Below, piece after piece: positions 4,439 to 13,070 of a DNA stretch of 15,641 bases. The notes below the pieces were generated by a model that was not told the DNA's origin, did no database searches, and worked only from the letters and a program-made list of their open reading frames with translations. Source of the DNA: Candidatus Asgardarchaeum abyssi (GTDB lineage: Archaea > Asgardarchaeota > Asgardarchaeia > Asgardarchaeales > Asgardarchaeaceae); the NCBI GenBank assembly GCA_040225955.1, contig JBECUL010000050.1, positions 1 through 15,641 of the forward strand. Reading direction: 5' to 3'. Position numbers and translations under genes: made by a program. The stretch's first letter is position 1; every line of letters begins with the position of its first letter.

Positions 4439-5665
4439 ATGGTAAATGCGAAAAGTACAATTCTTCTTCTATTATGGATCTTACCTTCAATATCTATAAT
4501 TGGTTACTTAAACTCTATCCATGCGTCATCACAACAAGAATTTGAAAATCTCGTTATTAATATTTTATACAATTTATAATGATTATTCCTTATCATTAAG
4601 CAACGCTCTTAACCTATATCCTTGCTTTAGGGTAACAGAAGGGAATGATCTTCTCTTACTTAATGAATTGGAATTTGATGTACTAATTTTATTAGATATC
4701 CCTATTAACTCATCGGATGTGGATTTAATTAATGCGTTTCTAAATAAGGGTAGTGGCGTTATATATCTTTTTGGACCAAGAACTACACAACTTTCTGGCT
4801 TAGAAAAAACTAAATGTGACTCTTACTGATGTTTTTGATAAGAATTCAGAAGACGGCATAACAAACTCTATCGATAGTGAAAATCCCTTAACTATAAATA
4901 TCGCATGGAATTCCATCCCAGAGGCAAAAAATTATACCGTGATTTCTCAAAACTCCTTGGCATTAGGTGTCAATGTAATTCCTGAGGAGGCTACATATAA
5001 GCATCCTAAGCTTTTGAGAAAAACATAGGATTAAGTAAAATAAATAATAGTATATACAGTCTGGTTGACTTCGAATAACAATAAAGAAATAAAGTTATGG
5101 CCATATTTTAACTATTTTATTTACTCAAGGTTTTCTTTCAGGAATTTTCAGAGAGTTATTCACATGGTAGACAAGTCCTTACCGACTATTATGTTTCTCA
5201 AGGGCTTAAATGGTCTAACTTTTTCACTTTTTTGCTTGTGTCTTCCCTATCTGCTGTTAGAGCAAGATTCATTTTAGGCGCAGTGGGTCCAGATTGGGCA
5301 CTCGCAATGGTTCTTTTAGGATCCTTATTAATTTTTCAATTACTAGATCCGTATTCTTGGCTTGGCGATCAAATTCCTGCTGGTGTAGGCAGAACTAGAA
5401 GCCTTGCCGTAATATGGGCTATATAACAATCAATCCGTGCTATATTTCTTATACTTTTTATTCCAATGTACGGAATGGTTAGTGTTGTTTATGCATATAT
5501 TCTGGTTTTATCGTTAAAGACATAGGAGCTTGGATACTTATTAGAAAATATGTTGCTAAGCCAAAAATAAGCTCACTTCACAATAGGTATTCTGTAGATA
5601 TTTTTGATGAAGCTGTGTGTGAAGCAGAAGAATTAACAAAGGAGAAAAAGCACTTAAATATTAGC
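4439..5665 (+). pseudogene. Decayed gene for a signal-peptide-bearing multipass membrane protein, probably with a Wzx/MATE-like flippase portion
   Basis: ATG 4439 encodes a signal-peptide-like MVNAKSTILLLLWILPSISIIG (stop at 4579). Protein-like text continues across frameshifts: DVLILLD...GVIYLFGP / NPLTINIAWNSIPE / LWPYFNYFIY / SESYSHGRQVLTDYYVSQGLKWSNFFTF...GAVGPDW...WAI*QSIRAIFLILFIP...AYIL / IGAWILIRKYVAKPKI...LHNRYSVDIFDEAVCEAEELTKEKKHL. The family assignment is from recalled resemblance only; the end coordinate is approximate. Confidence 0.7.
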
Positions 5666-5694
5666 TTCCTCTATACCTTATTATTTCTATTTAA

Positions 5695-6879
5695 TTATCT
5701 TGTGATCCTTATTTCTTTCATTCTTTCAAAAGCTTTTTTACCAGGACCGCTACTAAAGTACTTATTTATAGGATCTAACTTTCTGATAAGCCATTCTGCA
5801 ACACCATTCTTCAAATCTAGTGGATGTAAAGCTCCTTTTTGGAAATCACTCTTTAGTTCATCGAAGCTCGTGTAATCCACTGGTCCGCCAAATTTAGCGG
5901 GTCTATCAATATGGAGTTCTCCATCGAGGGGGAATATTAATAATCTTGTAATGTCTATAATTGGGTTATATTCTATTTGCCTAGCTGGGCAATATGCACT
6001 CCTTATTTTATCTTTTATCTCCTCTGGAGAATCGTGAACAAAAATAGCACTTTTTGGCTTTGATTTGCTCATTTTTACGTCAATAAATATATCTTTAGCT
6101 GCTATGGAGTCTCCCTTGCTTTCCGCTTCTTTTATCATTCTCACATCATCATCACTTATTTGGAATCCAAGCAAGAGAGAATGGTGCAATGCTATTGGTT
6201 TTATTACTTTTTCTTCCCCATCAATCTCTGCTGTTAATTTATTAACTCTTATTTTTAGTGCTACTTCTCTAGCTATAACATGAGCTTTTCTTTGATCTAA
6301 TCCGGCATGTGCGATGTTAACTTGAAGGGTGAAAATATCTGCAACTTGCATAACGGGATATATTAGTTTGGCAAAATCAAGACTTTCTCCCATTTTTCTG
6401 CCCATTATAGTTATCGATCTTCTAACTCTTGATAGTGTGGTATGTTTTGCTACATCGATCACTGTCTCCCAATAGTGTGGATTTTCCTCATACAATTCAC
6501 TACCCAAAATAATATTTACTTTATCTGGATCTCCACCCATCGCTTTAACACTGAGTTTCATGGCTTCTGCGAAATAGTTTTTTGCAACCCACCTTATTGT
6601 TTCCATATCTCCTCCTAATTTATCATTTATCCAGCTATGCCAATCAGCTAGGAAAATTGTTGTTTCTACTCCTGCCTTTTGAAGATGCGCTATTTTTAGG
6701 CCACTAATCAATCCAGTTCCTAAGTGAACAAATCCCGATATTTCAAAACCTTGATAGTGTTTCAAAGGAATGCCATTTTCAATGTAATTATGAAGATCTT
6801 CTATTGTTAATATTTCCTCTGTAGGTGGTTTTTTGAATAATTCAATTTTCTTCTCTATGTCCAAGAAAAACACCACCAT
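5695..6879 (-). CDS. tyrS: Tyrosine--tRNA ligase, archaeal type
   Basis: YQGFEISGFVHLGT (HIGH-like), ADWHSWINDK, IYPVMQVADIF, GLDQRKAH, KMSKS, AYCP, LHPLDLK. The real start may be TTG at 6864. Confidence 0.96.
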   Translation of the reverse strand: MVVFFLDIEKKIELFKKPPTEEILTIEDLHNYIENGIPLKHYQGFEISGFVHLGTGLISGLKIAHLQKAGVETTIFLADWHSWINDKLGGDMETIRWVAKNYFAEAMKLSVKAMGGDPDKVNIILGSELYEENPHYWETVIDVAKHTTLSRVRRSITIMGRKMGESLDFAKLIYPVMQVADIFTLQVNIAHAGLDQRKAHVIAREVALKIRVNKLTAEIDGEEKVIKPIALHHSLLLGFQISDDDVRMIKEAESKGDSIAAKDIFIDVKMSKSKPKSAIFVHDSPEEIKDKIRSAYCPARQIEYNPIIDITRLLIFPLDGELHIDRPAKFGGPVDYTSFDELKSDFQKGALHPLDLKNGVAEWLIRKLDPINKYFSSGPGKKAFERMKEIRITR

Positions 6880-7323
6880 TACATATAGATTTTTGTACTA
6901 AACTTGATGTTGACGAAATTATAAATCTATCTATATGAAAATCGTTAGTAACTCTATTTATATAATCATGATTATTGTATTTCAATTCTTTCTGATATAT
7001 TAATTATTTATAGCAAGAAAAGCGAAAGTGCTCCATACGTATAAGAAGAATGTATTATACTTTATGAGCGCTAAAAATTTCCAATAGAATTAAAAATATG
7101 TACGATTATAACCTTAAATTTAATTAAGTGCTTTAGCATTATTAATAATAGCAGTTAATAGTTTTTGCATAAAATGTATAGCTTGGGAATAATACCATAT
7201 TTTGAGGGTAGTGCGTTTAGGAGTTATGTAGTTAAAATTATAATATGTTTTTCCTCAAATCTAATATAAAATAAAGGTGAATAATTAATAGCATACTATA
7301 GTTGTGTTAGTATACTCCTAAAA

Positions 7324-7638
7324 ATGATTTGGAGTTTGTTTAAGGTGGTTACTGTAAAGGTTCCTCCATTTAAATGTTTATTCTGTGAGTACCAATTTAC
7401 TGATATAACTGTTGAGTTAGAGAGAATTAAAAAGTTATATAGAGAAACTACTAGGCCTGTTCCTGTACCTGTGAAATGTCCTAATGGTCATGAGTTAGTT
7501 ATCTTTTTATATACTCAAGGAGATGAAATTAGGATTAGATCTATAATGCCAGCTGTTGGTTCTGCAGAAACTGATATTGATAAGAAAAAAGATGAAGAAA
7601 AAGAGAGGAAACCTCTTGATTGGTTTGAGGTGTGGTGA
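7324..7638 (+). CDS. Small Zn-finger protein (CxxC...CxxxH), first gene of the GTPase operon
   Basis: CLFC and CPNGH provide four candidate Zn ligands; charged tail. The stop codon is part of the GGTGA RBS of the next gene. Likely start is GTG 7345. Confidence 0.75.
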   Translation: MIWSLFKVVTVKVPPFKCLFCEYQFTDITVELERIKKLYRETTRPVPVPVKCPNGHELVIFLYTQGDEIRIRSIMPAVGSAETDIDKKKDEEKERKPLDWFEVW

Positions 7639-7643
7639 TTTAA

Positions 7644-8051
7644 GTGATTCATAAGGTAGTAGTTATTGAGGAAGATAAAGGGCTTCCTGTATTACAAATA
7701 GATAATAAAGATTCCAAATTTAAAATTAACATAGCAGATCTATCAGGTGTGATAGAAGCTATTAATGTGACAATAAAGTCTTTAGTTGATAGTCAGGAAA
7801 GAGTTCAAAAGATGAGTTTTAGAACATTTACTATTCTTGCTGAGAGGTGCAAAGAAAAGCCCTATACTGTCATCGTAATTGCTGATTCTGACAGCCGGGT
7901 TAATTATCAACGATTAAGACAAATGGTTGAGATTATAGATAAATCCACACACATAGACTCTGATGAAACTAAAGACAAACTCATTGAAATTTTGAGTGAA
8001 AAGACATTCCTTGAAGAGCTAAAGGATTGGGGTGAAAAATTGTGGACGTAA
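7644..8051 (+). CDS. Longin-like (longin/roadblock superfamily) domain protein
   Basis: beta-beta-alpha-beta-beta-beta-alpha pattern: MIHKVVVI / GLPVL / LSGVIEAINVTIKSL / VQKMSF / FTILAE / YTVIVIAD / YQRLRQMVEII. The GLP and SGxxxAI motifs resemble Asgard longins. GGTGA lies 5 nt before the GTG. Confidence 0.7.
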   Translation: MIHKVVVIEEDKGLPVLQIDNKDSKFKINIADLSGVIEAINVTIKSLVDSQERVQKMSFRTFTILAERCKEKPYTVIVIADSDSRVNYQRLRQMVEIIDKSTHIDSDETKDKLIEILSEKTFLEELKDWGEKLWT

Positions 8052-9559
8052 GTGGTGTGGAGAGTATTTTTATCTCTTTCGATAAAGATATAGCCTTGGT
8101 AATCATAATCATTGGAATTTTATCGATAATTATTGGGCTTTTAAAATTGTTTAAGCTGATTAAAGAAAAGAAAGGTCGTGAAGTAATTATAAGTTATATT
8201 TTTCTTTTGCATGGATTCCTATTCCTCAGCCTGCAATTAATTTTTGAGCACTTTATACTTCTGTATCCAGAAATACTTCCAACGATATTTTTCATATTTG
8301 CAGTTGCATCATTTGCAGCTTTCATAGCTTATGGTTTTTCTAAATATCTCCTATTTGCGATTTTATCCTCATTTTCAATATCATCCTACATTTTATATTT
8401 GCTTGGTGTAAGTGGTAGTATTGCAATTGCAATATATTATATGTTCTCAGCTATTGCTTTCTCTGTCGTGATAATTCCAGCAGGCATTTATTTATCCATT
8501 AAGCGGTATCCACCCTTCTGCTTCTCGCTTGGTTATGCATTATATATATTTACTTACATAGTTGAGAAAGTCGGCGAATTTATTGTAGCGAGAACTGGTT
8601 TCTTATACCTACAATATTTATTTAACCTTTTTAGAGCACTAGAAATTTATCTATATTCCTTTATTATAATCTTTTTAGCATCTTCGTTGATATTTTCGAA
8701 TGAACAAAGTGTTATAAGAGGGTTAACTAGAAGTCTTACAATATATATTGGTATTATAGGTGCTGGTACGTTTCTTTATCTTTATTTCTCAAAGCTGATG
8801 GCAATTCGACTTACTCCAAATCCAGAAACGGCATATCAACTCTATATGAGTGGTATACCAACAGCATTATTCTTATTTGCTGGTATCATAGCGGCAGCAA
8901 TAACAGTATCTGCTATAACTTCTATATTCATTGAAAAATACATTCTCTTCAAGGATAGGCCCTCGTTCTACATGGGACTCGGATATCTATCATTAGCTAT
9001 CGGCCTTATTGCTTATGTTTATCTGTTACTGTTTACTTTAGAGTATTTAACTCCTTTAGGCTATTTCTATACAATAAACTACCAATATCAAATACCTTAT
9101 AGAGTTTATCTACTTTCATTATTAATTGCTGGCTCATTGTTTTCATTAGGCAGCCTTATGATATTGCGAAAGGAATCCTATTATTACTTCTTGTCATGGG
9201 TGACTGGATTTGCAATCGCATCGCTCTTATTCACAAAACATATACCAATCAATATATTGAATCCATTAATTTTTATGGAGCTCCCCCTCTCAGCATTTCT
9301 GATATCCTTGCTCATATTATTCTTTATACCAATAGCGATATTCTTAAGATACGGTTTCTTACTCTATAGACGTGGTTCTCCTGCAGCCGTTATTACATTA
9401 GGAATTGGTTTATCGCTAGTTATATTTATAATAGGTCTTTTCTTCCATATTTTTGTTCTTGAAAATCTATTACGATTCTTTGGAGGAGTACTCTACTTTT
9501 TCAACTCGGTAATTGTATATGCTCTCTTATTACAAAGAGGTAGAAGTAGAAAAACATGA
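8042..9559 (+). CDS. Multipass membrane protein (~15 TM), function unknown
   Basis: 505 aa, almost entirely hydrophobic segments with short loops and a basic C-tail QRGRSRKT. Overlaps the upstream gene by 10 nt; GGTGA at 8031-8035. Confidence 0.8.
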   Translation: MDVSGVESIFISFDKDIALVIIIIGILSIIIGLLKLFKLIKEKKGREVIISYIFLLHGFLFLSLQLIFEHFILLYPEILPTIFFIFAVASFAAFIAYGFSKYLLFAILSSFSISSYILYLLGVSGSIAIAIYYMFSAIAFSVVIIPAGIYLSIKRYPPFCFSLGYALYIFTYIVEKVGEFIVARTGFLYLQYLFNLFRALEIYLYSFIIIFLASSLIFSNEQSVIRGLTRSLTIYIGIIGAGTFLYLYFSKLMAIRLTPNPETAYQLYMSGIPTALFLFAGIIAAAITVSAITSIFIEKYILFKDRPSFYMGLGYLSLAIGLIAYVYLLLFTLEYLTPLGYFYTINYQYQIPYRVYLLSLLIAGSLFSLGSLMILRKESYYYFLSWVTGFAIASLLFTKHIPINILNPLIFMELPLSAFLISLLILFFIPIAIFLRYGFLLYRRGSPAAVITLGIGLSLVIFIIGLFFHIFVLENLLRFFGGVLYFFNSVIVYALLLQRGRSRKT

Positions 9560-9562
9560 TGG

Positions 9563-10177
9563 GTGATAACTTTGAGTTATGAAGTAATTAAAGAAAGGGT
9601 GTTGAAGATACTTTTGCTTGGCGATACCAGTGTTGGAAAGACTAGTATGGCAATTCGTTATGTAGAAGGTGTTTTCCCAGATCCCGATAAGTTGAAATCG
9701 ACAATAGGTGTAGCCTTTTTCTCAAAAAAGGTAAAAGTAAATAATGAGGTTATTATAGCACAAATATGGGACTTTGCGGGTCAAGAACATTTTCGATCTT
9801 TTATGAAAGATATGTTTCGTGGCGCAGCTGGTGGTCTCTTTGTTTTCGATGTAACGCAAGTCACAACACTTGACGACCTAAAGAACTTCTGGATACCTGA
9901 ATTGGAATCAAAATTAGGATTCAAACTTTCTGAAACAAAAAATCATCCTTTTGTTCTTGTTGGTAATAAGGTAGATTTGCTTGATTATGTTTCTTCTATT
10001 TCTACTGTGAATATAGTCTCTATGAGTGAATTAGATGAGTTTCTGGATAAATATGGATTCCAATATTTCGCCACTTCAGCAAAAACTGGTGAAAATATAG
10101 ATATAGCTTTTAAATCCGCCGTAAAAAAGGCCTATCAATTTTACATTAAACCATCTAAGCAAGCTACTATTATATAA
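9563..10177 (+). CDS. Rab-like small GTPase (Ras superfamily)
   Basis: G1 GDTSVGKT, G2 STIG, G3 WDFAGQE, G4 NKVD, G5 TSAK. RabF-like motifs IGVAF, AQIW, HFRSF, MFRGA, FVFDVT. Likely start is TTG 9572 (GGTGA at 9562-9566). Confidence 0.93.
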   Translation: MITLSYEVIKERVLKILLLGDTSVGKTSMAIRYVEGVFPDPDKLKSTIGVAFFSKKVKVNNEVIIAQIWDFAGQEHFRSFMKDMFRGAAGGLFVFDVTQVTTLDDLKNFWIPELESKLGFKLSETKNHPFVLVGNKVDLLDYVSSISTVNIVSMSELDEFLDKYGFQYFATSAKTGENIDIAFKSAVKKAYQFYIKPSKQATII

Positions 10178-10201
10178 TAAATTTTATGTAAACTCATCAT
10201 G

Positions 10202-10222
10202 TCCTTCTTTATTTCTTTCTCT
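10202..10222 (+). terminator. Possible pyrimidine/T-rich archaeal terminator of the GTPase operon
   Basis: TCCTTCTTTATTTCTTTCTCT lies 25 nt after the GTPase stop, in the gap between convergent genes. Confidence 0.3.
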
Positions 10223-10229
10223 AATCTAA

Positions 10230-10970
10230 CTATATTGTAGTTATTGATGTGTATTTTTCACTTGCACGGAAAAAGTTGTATATTATCATTGCTCGTTTTC
10301 TACCTATACCTGGAACTTTTGAAAGGGAATCTGCAGAAGCATTGACTATATTATAAATTGTCCTATATCTTCTTAAGAGGTTTTTAGCAAGATTAGGACC
10401 TATTGTTGGGATTGAAGATAACATAATCACTCTATAATCTCTTTCACCCGAAACTTTAACTTCCTCTCGAGTCCATATAGCTTCAGGAAGTGCTTCATTT
10501 TTTCCCTTTTCCTCTCTCTGAACTAATATTCTAAAAAATTGCCTGAGCGCTGCTTTATTATCTGCAAAAATAACAGGAATTGCGTACACAAAAAGAATTT
10601 GCTGAATAGCACCAATCATTGAAGCGTAGAAAACGTCCTTTTGTCTATCGCTAATGAATTGAGAATCAGGCATATATTGGTCAAAAGTTCCATCAATTAG
10701 TAGAATTTTTCTTCTTATAGGAAGATTTTCTATTTCATTTGTCTTTACTATTCTATAAAGCTGATCCCAAAGCCTATTGTTTCGTACAGAATTTACAAAG
10801 TCGCTTATGTTTTTTCTTTCTATGAGTACAGCATATTTTGCAAAGTTAAAAAGGAAATCACCGATTTCTAATTGCTTGATTTTAACTTTTCCTGGAAATA
10901 ACTTTTCTAAGGTTTCAATGATATCAGATTTTTCTCTGTTATCTATAGTCAATTGTTTTAGAAATACCAT
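10230..10970 (-). CDS. xpf: XPF/ERCC4-family structure-specific endonuclease, short form (nuclease + HhH2)
   Basis: IDNRE, LEIGDF, IERKNISDFVNSV...RLWDQ (GDxnERKx3D); two HhH motifs IPTIGP and VPGIGRKRA. Start placed at ATG 10970, which has GGTGA upstream and removes the overlap with the neighbour (ORF track start 11015). Confidence 0.88.
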   Translation of the reverse strand: MVFLKQLTIDNREKSDIIETLEKLFPGKVKIKQLEIGDFLFNFAKYAVLIERKNISDFVNSVRNNRLWDQLYRIVKTNEIENLPIRRKILLIDGTFDQYMPDSQFISDRQKDVFYASMIGAIQQILFVYAIPVIFADNKAALRQFFRILVQREEKGKNEALPEAIWTREEVKVSGERDYRVIMLSSIPTIGPNLAKNLLRRYRTIYNIVNASADSLSKVPGIGRKRAMIIYNFFRASEKYTSITTI

Positions 10971-10996
10971 CTCAATCACCTTTACAATTAATAAGC

Positions 10997-11404
10997 TTAC
11001 GGTAATAACTTGCATAAAAATGATAACAAGAGGAAAATAATTGAAAGAATGCCAAAAACATCCTTTAGCTCTGTTTTTTTCTCTGGTGTTTTTTCAGTTT
11101 TCTGAAGATACGAAACATATCGCAGATATTCTTTATATTTCATTTGAGGCAGATAGCGATATGTATGTTTAGGATCTATTATTTTCGAACTATATGGCGT
11201 AATTGAGTATAAAAATAAGAATACTACAAATTCTACAAAAAATGTTAATGCAAAAGCGGTTTTAAAAGTGTTTATATCTCCAAATTTCAAATAAGTCCAA
11301 AGATAGAATACACTAAGTGCTACATTACAAATAAAAGTTATAATTAAAATTACCTTGACATTTTTTAGTAACTCTAATAAGTTAATACTTCTCATTTTAA
11401 CCAC
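10997..11404 (-). CDS. Small membrane protein (3 predicted TM), unknown function
   Basis: Two N-terminal hydrophobic helices, a charged loop and a C-terminal hydrophobic helix. Fits with short gaps between co-oriented genes. Confidence 0.65.
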   Translation of the reverse strand: MVKMRSINLLELLKNVKVILIITFICNVALSVFYLWTYLKFGDINTFKTAFALTFFVEFVVFLFLYSITPYSSKIIDPKHTYRYLPQMKYKEYLRYVSYLQKTEKTPEKKTELKDVFGILSIIFLLLSFLCKLLP

Positions 11405-11420
11405 GGCACAGTAAAAACAT

Positions 11421-13070
11421 TTACTCTATTCCTAAACTTACTTTTATTTGCTTAGCAGTAGTATTCCAACTATAGTATGTCTCTGCTACTCTCCTTATTG
11501 ATCTTTTAATAACACTTTTTATCTCCTCTTTTTTCAGCACCGAAATCCAATATTTAAGATTTAAAGCTAGCCTGTTGATTCTTACATTTGGATCTGGTGG
11601 AATTGTTAAAGTCTTGTAGTTAATCTTTGTTATTGTATTACATATACTAATAGCTATGTCTTTCAAAAGATCATTATTTGTAATTATAGGTACTAATCCT
11701 GATGCCATACCTTTTAATACCGAAGATCTGTGAATTTTTGGGGAAGTTACTGGAAAAACAATAATATCGAATAGTGGTAGAATTTCAGCCAATGCGTAAT
11801 CATCAAGATTGCCTAATATCTTTATTTTATCTTTTATTCTAAGTTGCTGAGCATTCATGAAATATTCTTGAAGTCTTCCTTCAGACTTTAATTTCTCAAA
11901 AAATATCATAATTGCAGAAAGTAACTCCTTCTCTTTGATGGTCTCTTTAACAGCTTCTAAGATAAGTCTAACTAAGCCATAATTTCTCATATTTAAGGCT
12001 TTTAAAAGCATTTCAATGAACTCTCTGTATATACTGTATCCTATGAAAATAAAATCTATATCATGAAGTAAAAGTACCTTAGGAATAGCAAAAATCAAAT
12101 CAAAAATCCCTGAATATGGTGAGAAATCGCCAACATAGGCAACAATTGGTCTTTTTTCCCATCTGATCCGCTTAATCTTATATAGAATATCCGCGTCTGG
12201 GTGATCTGGATTGTAGACATTTTTAATTTTACTTGATAACTCAATCAAGTCTCTTTTACTTAATGTACCTCTCTTAAGAGTCTCATCCATTAGTACACTA
12301 TATTCTTCCTTTCGACCGTCTTTAAACTTACTAACTAGTGATGCAAAATTCGCTATTCGTTTATTAAATTGTGTTACAGTTCCATCATATAATTGAAATT
12401 GCGCAGTATCTACACCATCGGGAATTATTTTAATTTTTGATTCTAAGTTTTCTACAAGCTCGCTGAATGCACTTACAACTTTATTTTTGGCAAATAAATC
12501 ATTTACAAATATAAATTCTGTTTCTACTAATCCTTTAAGCGTATATTTAAGGACATGAGACGGTACTTTTAATATATTCTCTATATTCTGTGTAGGTATC
12601 CTAATTGCAAATTTCAATTTATACCTCTCTTTAAACTTCGCTGCAATATACGGCAATATGGGAAAGTCCATCAATATTAAACCGTTTAATCCAAACGTAT
12701 TGTATAATTCATGTAAACTTTCTTCGTAAGCTCTCATATACCCATTTATCTCATCATTATTTGCATCAGAAAGTTTCTTCACATTTTTTTCCTTGCATAT
12801 ATCGTTAGTGCTTGTCAGCATTATAGGTAAATTAAGTGAAATCAATGATATCCTTTGACTCTCAGCGTGTTCTTTTTCATAAACTCGTTTAAGTTTCCTA
12901 TTTTGTATGACATATGCGGTATCTATAAAATCATACTTGTTTACATTTTCCTCATAAGCACAAAGAATATAAACCTCGTCATTTAGTTCAGATAATGCTT
13001 TTGCCAAACCTTTAATAAAGTATAAATCTTCCATTAAGGTGTTTCCGTAGATAATTCCTACTTTGCCCAT
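11421..13070 (-). CDS. GT4 (GT-B fold) glycosyltransferase-like protein, probably catalytically degenerate
   Basis: LAKALSELNDEVYIL, IIPDGVDTAQF, IVAYVG, DIIVFP, MASGLVPII, YYSWNTTAKQI follow the GT4 scaffold. Key donor-binding residues are substituted. Confidence 0.8.
   Translation of the reverse strand: MGKVGIIYGNTLMEDLYFIKGLAKALSELNDEVYILCAYEENVNKYDFIDTAYVIQNRKLKRVYEKEHAESQRISLISLNLPIMLTSTNDICKEKNVKKLSDANNDEINGYMRAYEESLHELYNTFGLNGLILMDFPILPYIAAKFKERYKLKFAIRIPTQNIENILKVPSHVLKYTLKGLVETEFIFVNDLFAKNKVVSAFSELVENLESKIKIIPDGVDTAQFQLYDGTVTQFNKRIANFASLVSKFKDGRKEEYSVLMDETLKRGTLSKRDLIELSSKIKNVYNPDHPDADILYKIKRIRWEKRPIVAYVGDFSPYSGIFDLIFAIPKVLLLHDIDFIFIGYSIYREFIEMLLKALNMRNYGLVRLILEAVKETIKEKELLSAIMIFFEKLKSEGRLQEYFMNAQQLRIKDKIKILGNLDDYALAEILPLFDIIVFPVTSPKIHRSSVLKGMASGLVPIITNNDLLKDIAISICNTITKINYKTLTIPPDPNVRINRLALNLKYWISVLKKEEIKSVIKRSIRRVAETYYSWNTTAKQIKVSLGIE

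Follow-up and report, generated by a model that had tools for sequence, protein, structure and literature searches.

The window analysed here, that is, the whole stretch of 15,641 nucleotides (nt) forming contig JBECUL010000050.1 of Candidatus Asgardarchaeum abyssi (assembly GCA_040225955.1), carries four consecutive genes on the plus strand, which encode a small zinc-ribbon-type protein, a longin-fold protein, a polytopic membrane protein and a Rab-like small GTPase, in that order (Table 1). The window is contig C50 of the host bin, a 2.6-Mb Asgard genome that is 93% complete. The four open reading frames (ORFs) are 104, 135, 505 and 204 amino acids (aa) long, the last of them extending from 9563 to 10177, and are separated by gaps of 5, -10 and 3 nt, the longin and membrane-protein genes overlapping by 10 nt. 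A first-pass annotation, made from the letters of the sequence, had reported the four genes as co-oriented with exactly these gaps, and recalculation from the ORF coordinates returned the same values. It had further proposed that they encode a membrane-anchored GTPase signalling module. The conservation of this gene cassette, the properties of its products and the function that may be ascribed to it are described below.

Table 1. Positions of the cassette genes, sequence motifs and flanking features in the window
Feature	Position	Strand	Basis or remark
Class I Trp/Tyr-tRNA synthetase gene (tyrS)	5695-6879	-	upstream flank, divergent
Small zinc-ribbon-type protein (predicted), 104 aa	7324..7638	+	ORF and family alignment
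Zinc-protein C-terminal Trp motif LDWFEVW	7615..7635	+	family alignment
GGTGA ribosome-binding-type motif	7633..7637	+	6 nt before GTG 7644; overlaps the zinc-gene stop codon
Longin-fold protein (modelled), 135 aa	7644..8051	+	AlphaFold2 model, fold searches, hidden Markov model
Longin C-terminal Trp motif LKDWGEKLWT	8019..8048	+	family alignment
GGTGA motif	8031..8035	+	6 nt before GTG 8042
Polytopic membrane protein, 505 aa, about 15 helices	8042..9559	+	hydropathy, positive-inside rule, hhalign
GGTGA motif	9562..9566	+	overlaps GTG 9563; 5 nt before in-frame TTG 9572
Rab-like small GTPase, 201 aa (probable start)	9572..10177	+	Pfam Ras; 204 aa if from GTG 9563
Spacer of 52 nt, T-rich, separating the convergent GTPase and XPF genes	10178..10229	.	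read from sequence
ERCC4+HhH nuclease gene (XPF-type)	10230-11015	-	downstream flank, convergent

Conservation and subtypes of the cassette

A metagenome contig that is 97% identical to the window carries the same four ORFs at the same lengths. Against this strain, the ratio of nonsynonymous to synonymous polymorphism (pN/pS) lies between 0.11 and 0.26 for each gene, with few changes in the two small genes; the value for the zinc-protein gene, 0.25, likewise comes from few changes. At a greater distance, an archaeon deposited at NCBI as Candidatus Asgardarchaeia archaeon encodes a longin, a membrane protein and a GTPase that are 58%, 37% and 72% identical to those of the window, and the accessions of the three proteins are consecutive (MGQ4832472, -73 and -74). 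No relative of the host genome from the same class was found among the species representatives compared.

A profile of the zinc protein gave matches at E-values below 1e-15 in 58 of the 400 genomes of the phylum, and these matches are confined to four families, namely the window's own and those designated f12 (3 of 3 genomes), f11 (8 of 19) and f5 (46 of 86), the last being probably Thorarchaeia as judged by its Atlas cluster label. The longin and zinc profiles reach much wider than that of the membrane protein. ORFs were mapped around 60 zinc-protein loci from the four families, several of the incomplete loci stopping at a contig edge. A gene of about 130 aa lies directly downstream of the zinc gene in 47 of the 60 loci, and in 39 it is accompanied by a gene for a protein of 450-520 aa with 12-15 helices. 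The full set of four genes, including the small GTPase, is found at 33 loci. The GTPase gene directly follows the membrane-protein gene in most loci and directly precedes the zinc gene in one subgroup, and the gaps within the cassettes are mostly between -22 and +20 nt. The first-pass annotation had made its proposal depend on conservation of the cluster, and these 33 complete loci establish that conservation. Since the layout recurs in the 97% identical contig, in the 37-72% identical relative and in dozens of distant Asgard genomes, the arrangement is not a matter of chance, and the four genes, judged by their sequences and order, constitute a conserved cassette and are very likely to be functionally linked.

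By sequence comparison the window represents a divergent subtype, all four of its parts differing from those of the main type. A 35% identical longin and a 51% identical GTPase, each listed with a longest contig of 14,920 bp, hint at a third lineage of this subtype.

Variant arrangements were encountered both in the host genome and in other families. The host genome holds a second, paralogous cassette (G000:C75:4410-7936), in which the zinc protein is 86 aa long and without the C-terminal Trp tail described below, the longin is 131 aa long and the GTPase, of 181 aa, is followed by a TauE/SafE exporter gene. Two membrane proteins of 263 and 178 aa stand there in place of one, as a result of a split or a frameshift or as a different protein; neither gave an hhalign match to the cassette membrane family. 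Convergent to this cassette, at 7923-8891 of the same contig, a 322-aa protein is encoded that matches both the GTPase and the longin profiles. At another locus of the host genome (G000:C36:6493-8278), a zinc-longin pair, both members Trp-tailed, precedes a metallo-beta-lactamase/tRNase Z-like gene and has neither a membrane protein nor a GTPase after it; this pair may serve a membrane protein encoded elsewhere. At a third (G000:C82:3283-6872), the longin profile is also matched (E = 8e-8) by an iron-sulfur protein of 525 aa that resembles FrhB/FdhB; its gene is followed by a small-GTPase gene (5420-5950) and by a gene for a 312-aa product weakly matching the zinc protein, which could amount to a further association of GTPase, longin and zinc protein in a different architecture. 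Two cassettes adjoin each other, in tandem or divergently, in f5 genomes (G331:C194 and G325:C119), one of the copies at G331:C194 being without the membrane protein. A second GTPase gene and a gene for a 458-aa protein precede the cassette at f11 loci (L080, L082, L099 and L101), and in two f11 genomes the longin and membrane-protein genes are seemingly missing, both GTPases being kept and the zinc gene being kept in one.

Properties of the four proteins

The GTPase matches the Pfam Ras model with an E-value of 2.1e-39 and TIGR00231 with 6e-19, and the alignment shows all of the nucleotide-binding motifs to be kept (G1 GDTSVGKT, switch I T47, G3 WDFAGQ, G4 NKVD and G5 SAK). It thus possesses both features by which members of the Ras superfamily are recognised, namely the G1-G5 motifs and a match to a family model. 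Its best relatives of solved structure are Ypt7/Rab7 (9e-27), Rab14, Rab1, Rab9, Rab11 and the Thorarchaeota Rab 7EZB. The C-terminal Cys motif for geranylgeranylation is absent from the protein, which ends in ...KQATII, and from 30 aligned relatives. The Pfam assignment, the Rab proteins at the top of the Protein Data Bank (PDB) matches and the missing Cys together bear out the earlier description of a Rab-like GTPase, here one without a prenylation site. The host genome contains about 25 Ras-family matches, the window GTPase among them. In a maximum-likelihood tree of 69 GTPases, including three eukaryotic Rabs, the GTPases of the main cassettes, whichever the gene order, form one clade (support 94/97), and the window GTPase belongs to a separate clade (99/97) with its 51-72% identical relatives and two more GTPases of the host genome. 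The latter clade falls in the half of the tree that holds the three eukaryotic Rabs, the deep forks being unsupported.

The 135-aa protein was modelled with AlphaFold2 (AF2) from a four-sequence alignment, with a predicted local distance difference test score (pLDDT) of 66 and a predicted template modelling score (pTM) of 0.63. The model has the order beta-beta-alpha-beta-beta-alpha-alpha-alpha, to be compared with the canonical longin sandwich of beta-beta-alpha-beta-beta-beta-alpha-alpha. Foldseek searches with this model are led by AP2 sigma (6e-5), TRAPP Bet5, Fuzzy, Mon1/Ccz1, LAMTOR and MglB, all of the longin/roadblock superfamily. VIA-align, which is independent of Foldseek, returned Z-scores of 11.9 for Fuzzy, 11.6 for synbindin and 11.4 for AP3 sigma; Fuzzy, synbindin, zeta-COP, AP sigma, sedlin and the longins of VAMP7 and Sec22 scored between 10 and 12 over 108-126 residues, and the roadblock proteins (MglB at 9.6, LAMTOR) scored lower, at 8-9.6. 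A hidden Markov model of cassette longins built without any window sequence matches the window protein at 9.6e-15. The protein is thus assigned the longin fold on a model of moderate confidence, and the agreement of AF2, Foldseek and VIA-align upholds the longin/roadblock fold previously ascribed to it.

Curated families add little to this assignment. The longin protein has no Pfam match above the cut-off and no NCBIfam match; a Pfam CRAL_TRIO_2 hit (E = 0.004) was rejected as lying below the family cut-off. Its relatives from other cassettes give sub-threshold matches to Robl_LC7 (4e-4) and Fuz_longin_1 (0.06), and the first rows of a search of the PDB with the family profile are roadblock, Bet5 and MON1 proteins at E-values of 0.02-2. 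Just four full-length relatives of the window longin were detectable in 1.8 billion representatives. Two further candidates, P0152 and P0153, were judged spurious, as their FN3-like/PKD-like repeats each match the same 55 residues.

In an alignment of 28 sequences of the 104-aa protein and its family, C18, C21, P45 and C52 are invariant, and R43, H56, D66, R72 and W100 are at least 90% conserved, H56 being replaced by Asp in one sequence. The resulting pattern, CPxC...C...H, agrees with that of zinc-ribbon ligands (two pairs, CxxC ... CxxxH/C), and the protein is thus predicted to represent a conserved zinc-ribbon-type family. The zinc finger of the first-pass annotation is retained to the extent that the ligand pattern is conserved within the family; no curated zinc-finger family was matched, the protein having no Pfam match at an E-value of 0.1 or better and no NCBIfam match. 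The family profile retrieved small zinc proteins from the PDB at non-significant E-values (0.18 or higher).

The 505-aa membrane protein has 15 hydropathy segments arranged as 7+1+7. Its loops carry 22 Lys/Arg residues on the cytoplasmic side and 7 outside, which by the positive-inside rule places the N-terminus out and the C-terminus in. Neither Pfam nor NCBIfam models matched, including 7tm_1-3, 7TMR-DISM_7TM and HisKA_7TM, the Pfam result being the same for three relatives, and no HATPase, HisKA or other soluble domain was found in the protein or in the membrane proteins of its relatives. A profile search of the PDB with the membrane protein gave nothing relevant. Scans of the genome contigs with the window protein and with its orthologue gave no match, and a profile of these two sequences found none in the 399 other genomes of the phylum.

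In the other cassettes, the membrane proteins constitute a single family with an internal duplication, the N-terminal half matching the C-terminal half in hhalign at 97.5% (E = 6e-12). The C-terminal half of the window protein (226-505) matches the repeat unit of this family at 90.9% (E = 1.2e-6); this match required an alignment of 34 sequences, a four-sequence alignment giving 0.3%. Controls with reversed alignments and with five unrelated polytopic proteins from the same loci remained at or below 2%. The window protein is thus, on this remote match, a very divergent member of a family of tandem seven-transmembrane (7TM) proteins. The count of about 15 transmembrane helices given in the first-pass annotation stands by hydropathy, and the description is refined here to that of a divergent member of a tandem-7TM, receptor-shaped family.

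The AF2 model of a relative from this family, built from a 28-row alignment, has a pLDDT of 91.8, a pTM of 0.87 and 15 helices arranged as 7+1+7, the two seven-helix repeats being parallel and not inverted. In comparisons of its residues 238-452 by an exhaustive aligner, G-protein-coupled receptor (GPCR) bundles fill nearly all of the top 50 rows. Over 200 residues, the C-terminal half superposes on the adhesion GPCR ADGRL3 with Z = 16.2 and a root-mean-square deviation of 3.8 A; the score for a designed GPCR-like fold is Z = 15.1. These scores exceed the level that helical bundles frequently reach by chance, and bear on shape, not on function. Foldseek found nothing in the PDB for this model at an E-value of 1e-3 or better, its first rows being LYCHOS/GPR155 at 0.2. 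The ESM Atlas, which models the window protein poorly (pLDDT 0.58), puts this protein and a member of the family closest to one and the same archaeal cluster of 472-aa proteins, the structural neighbours of which are 7TM modules of bacterial sensor kinases and cyclases with TM-scores of 0.3-0.65. Conservation is biased towards the cytoplasm. Of the 19 positions that are at least 85% identical among the relatives, 17 map to loops or helix ends on the cytoplasmic side and none to the outside, and between the window protein and its orthologue the identity is 46% in the inner half and 32% in the outer half (p = 0.0015).

Both the zinc protein and the longin end in a short Trp-containing tail behind a variable linker, and the two tails are alike in the main family. 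W129 of the longin is invariant in 27 sequences, and the tail is modelled by AF2 as a separate, low-confidence helix (127-134) after a disordered linker. Among the 39 loci that hold a membrane protein, the zinc-protein tail, with its Trp 3-7 residues from the C-terminus, is present in 38 and the longin tail in all 39, the Trp being slightly farther from the end in two of them; the loci are related to one another and the counts are therefore not independent. The longer zinc-domain proteins encoded outside such loci do not possess the Trp tail.

Locus layout, expression and occurrence

A GGTGA ribosome-binding site had been claimed in front of each of the three downstream genes. The claim is sustained for the starts at 7644 and 8042, but at 9563 the motif overlaps the GTG codon and fits the in-frame TTG at 9572. 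Since the spacing of GGTGA and the N-termini and 201-aa length of the closest homologues agree with TTG 9572, the GTPase gene probably begins there and leaves a gap of 12 nt. ATG 7324 has no GGTGA upstream at a usable spacing; GTG 7345, with GGAG upstream, is an alternative start. Base composition is even across the four-gene region. A scan with bacterial promoter and terminator consensus sequences, which are not applicable to archaea, found sites no commoner than in shuffled sequences. The T-rich spacer downstream of the GTPase gene is likely to mark the end of the operon.

The genes on either side of the cassette were identified by Pfam as those for a Trp/Tyr-tRNA synthetase and an ERCC4+HhH nuclease, in accordance with the divergent tyrS and convergent xpf named earlier. 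Beyond the XPF gene, the minus strand encodes a 135-aa protein with about three helices (10997-11404) and a 549-aa glycosyltransferase-group-1-like protein (11421-13070; Pfam 6e-8).

Contigs from one marine-sediment metatranscriptome library cover the zinc gene, the junction of the zinc and longin genes and the membrane-protein gene at 95-99% identity and low depth. The contigs that bridge the zinc/longin junction are only a hint of a joint transcript, and the parts left uncovered carry no information. The stretch was detected in sediment runs, marine and hydrothermal, that belong to 16 studies. One run from 2022, labelled with an organism name and not as a metagenome, contains positions 6800-10400 of the window whole on a 17.2-kb contig, at about 99% identity and a depth of 44, so that a close strain may be available as a culture or an enrichment.

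Candidate function and comparison with known systems

The tight coupling of the genes, the four protein families, their association across several Asgard families and the cytoplasmic bias in conservation are observed features of the cassette. The interpretation preferred here, to which a probability of about 0.55 is assigned, is that the four genes form one operon encoding a membrane-associated small-GTPase switch module. The double-7TM protein would then act as a membrane platform and possibly as a sensor that passes on a signal. The GTPase would be the switch and, having no prenyl or myristoyl site, would reach the membrane via this platform. [quoted passage not shown] The similar Trp helices of the zinc and longin proteins would tether both to the membrane protein on its conserved cytoplasmic face, perhaps with one tail for each 7TM unit. 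A complex prediction of the zinc protein and the longin against the GTPase, run without controls, gave a score of 0.23 against a mark of 0.32 and speaks neither for nor against binding.

Several observations weigh against the switch module. The window GTPase lies outside the clade of the main cassette GTPases, so that the subtypes may work differently. The zinc-longin pair of contig C36 possesses both tails and has no membrane-protein gene beside it. The N-terminal half of the window membrane protein matches nothing in hhalign, its link to the modelled family being the remote match of the C-terminal half, and a global alignment finds only 17 of the 88 family-consensus residues in this protein. 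Helices are commonly arranged as a 7TM bundle, which is uninformative on function, and Foldseek gave nothing below 1e-3. Confidence in the longin model is no more than moderate (pLDDT 66), and the model has four strands rather than five. The depth of the RNA library resembles that of the DNA library from the same sample; carry-over of DNA is possible and transcription is not proven.

A more far-reaching proposal is that the double-7TM protein would be a true receptor coupling directly to a monomeric Rab-like GTPase. Each bundle would take one Trp helix, from the longin and from the zinc protein, as a GPCR takes the C-terminal helix of G-alpha, and a change in the bundle would switch the longin/zinc pair between an exchange-promoting and an inactive state. 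This proposal is regarded as quite unlikely. If it is true, a 7TM receptor would signal to a small GTPase in archaea, and in those most closely related to eukaryotes, and a Rab-like switch would be put on a membrane independently of prenylation.

The cassette could alternatively specify the identity of a membrane or the targeting of material to it, with the membrane protein serving as a landmark or as the cargo. The GTPase would be loaded at that site by the longin and zinc proteins, acting as resident GEF (cf. Mon1-Ccz1, TRAPP and SRX with SR-beta), and once active would recruit effectors for membrane remodelling or protein delivery. Such a role would agree with the top structural matches of the longin, which are trafficking longins (Fuzzy, synbindin, sedlin, AP and COPI sigma/zeta, SRX), with Rab7/Ypt7 and Rab11 as best solved relatives of the GTPase and with conservation that is cytoplasmic and wanting on the outer face, where no conserved ligand pocket is called for. 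However, genes for effectors, coats or tethers are not retained in the cassette across the 60 loci, the membrane protein is shaped like receptor bundles, and internal membranes are not known to be established in these organisms. The targeting role is considered unlikely, though the least so of the alternatives to the switch module. Tandem repeats of helical units are common in transporters, and the 15-helix protein might instead move a solute, the longin, zinc protein and GTPase gating it or reading its occupancy, in parallel with SLC38A9 or LYCHOS acting with Ragulator/GATOR and Rag GTPases. LYCHOS/GPR155 indeed heads the Foldseek rows of the relative's model, but at an E-value of 0.2, and on contig C75 the second cassette is followed by a gene for a TauE-type exporter. 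The repeats are, on the other hand, parallel (7+1+7) and not inverted, the strongest matches are receptor bundles with no transporter fold ranking high, and no transporter family was matched in Pfam or NCBIfam. A transporter or transceptor is considered unlikely, somewhat more so than the targeting role.

The four genes might also be neighbours that share no function, the layout being inherited synteny. Small-GTPase genes of cultured Asgard archaea are reported to lie mostly outside operons with roadblock/longin genes (PMC10933270), and with about 25 Ras-family matches in a genome some adjacency to any class of gene is to be expected. The genes, however, stay together across four families at protein identities of 15-35%, in overlapping or nearly abutting frames; one subgroup has its GTPase gene relocated to the opposite end of the cassette, and some genomes hold a duplicate of the whole set. 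The absence of a shared function is disfavoured as very improbable.

The membrane-associated switch module would be of interest for several reasons. Asgard archaea possess many Rab-, Arf- and Rag-like GTPases as well as longin/roadblock proteins, and matching the two is hard without operons (PMC10933270). In at least four Asgard families, the cassette links one switch to a pair of candidate regulators and a single candidate membrane partner, and it would provide a concrete route by which a lipid-less Rab-like GTPase acts at the membrane. It places a receptor-shaped 7TM protein beside a small GTPase in a prokaryote, and the modest size of all four proteins makes direct biochemistry feasible. 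What the window contributes is a divergent subtype, from a lineage without close sequenced relatives, which shows that the cassette is old or fast-evolving as a unit. A literature search, in which subscription journals were thinly covered, found no paper on the four-gene cassette; a 2026 preprint reports 7TM proteins among the Asgard signature families, with no operon.

Among known systems, GPCRs and the bacterial 7TMR-DISM and HisKA_7TM modules resemble the C-terminal bundle of the relative's membrane protein, with the N-terminus out and the C-terminus in. The Asgard protein differs in consisting of two units fused via an eighth helix, with no output domain and no 7TM Pfam match, and the partner of GPCRs is a heterotrimeric G protein whereas that of the cassette protein would be a monomeric Rab-like GTPase. 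The likeness to 7TM receptors, as seen in the models, may be one of shape only. In eukaryotes, longin pairs (Mon1-Ccz1, TRAPP and Fuzzy-Inturned; SRX with SR-beta) form the surface that loads or holds a Rab-type GTPase at a membrane. The cassette longin finds its best structural matches in these platforms, the likeness being shown at the level of the fold, but they are multi-domain or multi-subunit assemblies acting on prenylated Rabs, while the Asgard cassette combines a single Trp-tailed longin of 135 aa with a GTPase that lacks a lipid anchor.

Closer in gene organisation are the MglA-MglB-type pairs (PMC4316618), in which the gene for a small Ras-superfamily GTPase likewise lies beside that for a regulator of the roadblock/longin fold. 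They comprise two genes, without a dedicated membrane protein or a zinc protein, and MglB compares with the window longin at Z = 9.6, below the eukaryote-type longins (10-12). Liu et al. (10.1101/2020.10.19.343400) described an Asgard operon of a LAMTOR1-like roadblock protein, a Rab-like GTPase and a DENN protein, most such genes lying outside conserved neighbourhoods, and Tran et al. (PMC10933270) found that the GTPase genes of a cultured strain are generally not in operons with roadblock/longin genes. The operon of Liu et al. resembles the cassette in that a gene neighbourhood conserved among Asgard archaea brings a Rab-like GTPase together with regulators of the roadblock/longin superfamily, and differs from it in the DENN-domain partner and in having neither a zinc-ribbon protein nor a polytopic membrane protein.

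The nearest parallel in overall logic is the conservon/AGPS of actinobacteria (CvnA-CvnD; Mfp operon), which comprises a membrane sensor kinase, a roadblock GAP, a small probable GEF and a Ras-like GTPase, the CvnB homologue MfpD being a GAP and the CvnC homologue MfpC a likely GEF (PMC13343842). The statement in the first-pass annotation that no characterised system with such a four-part layout was known is thus superseded. Both systems are four-gene operons with a membrane input protein, two regulators and one Ras-like switch, the first three being candidates for these roles in the Asgard cassette. They differ as follows: CvnA is histidine-kinase-like, whereas the Asgard membrane protein has no kinase or other soluble domain; CvnB is an MglB-type roadblock protein, and the Asgard regulator, of the same superfamily, is best matched by longins, with MglB at Z = 9.6; CvnC is a DUF742 protein, and the zinc-ribbon-type protein has no detectable DUF742; and CvnD is MglA-like in an actinobacterial host, whereas the Asgard GTPase is Rab-like, archaeal and placed in another gene order. 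The Asgard cassette lacks the kinase-type sensor, the DUF742 protein and the MglA-like actinobacterial GTPase of the conservon, and would share the logic of the conservon without being one.

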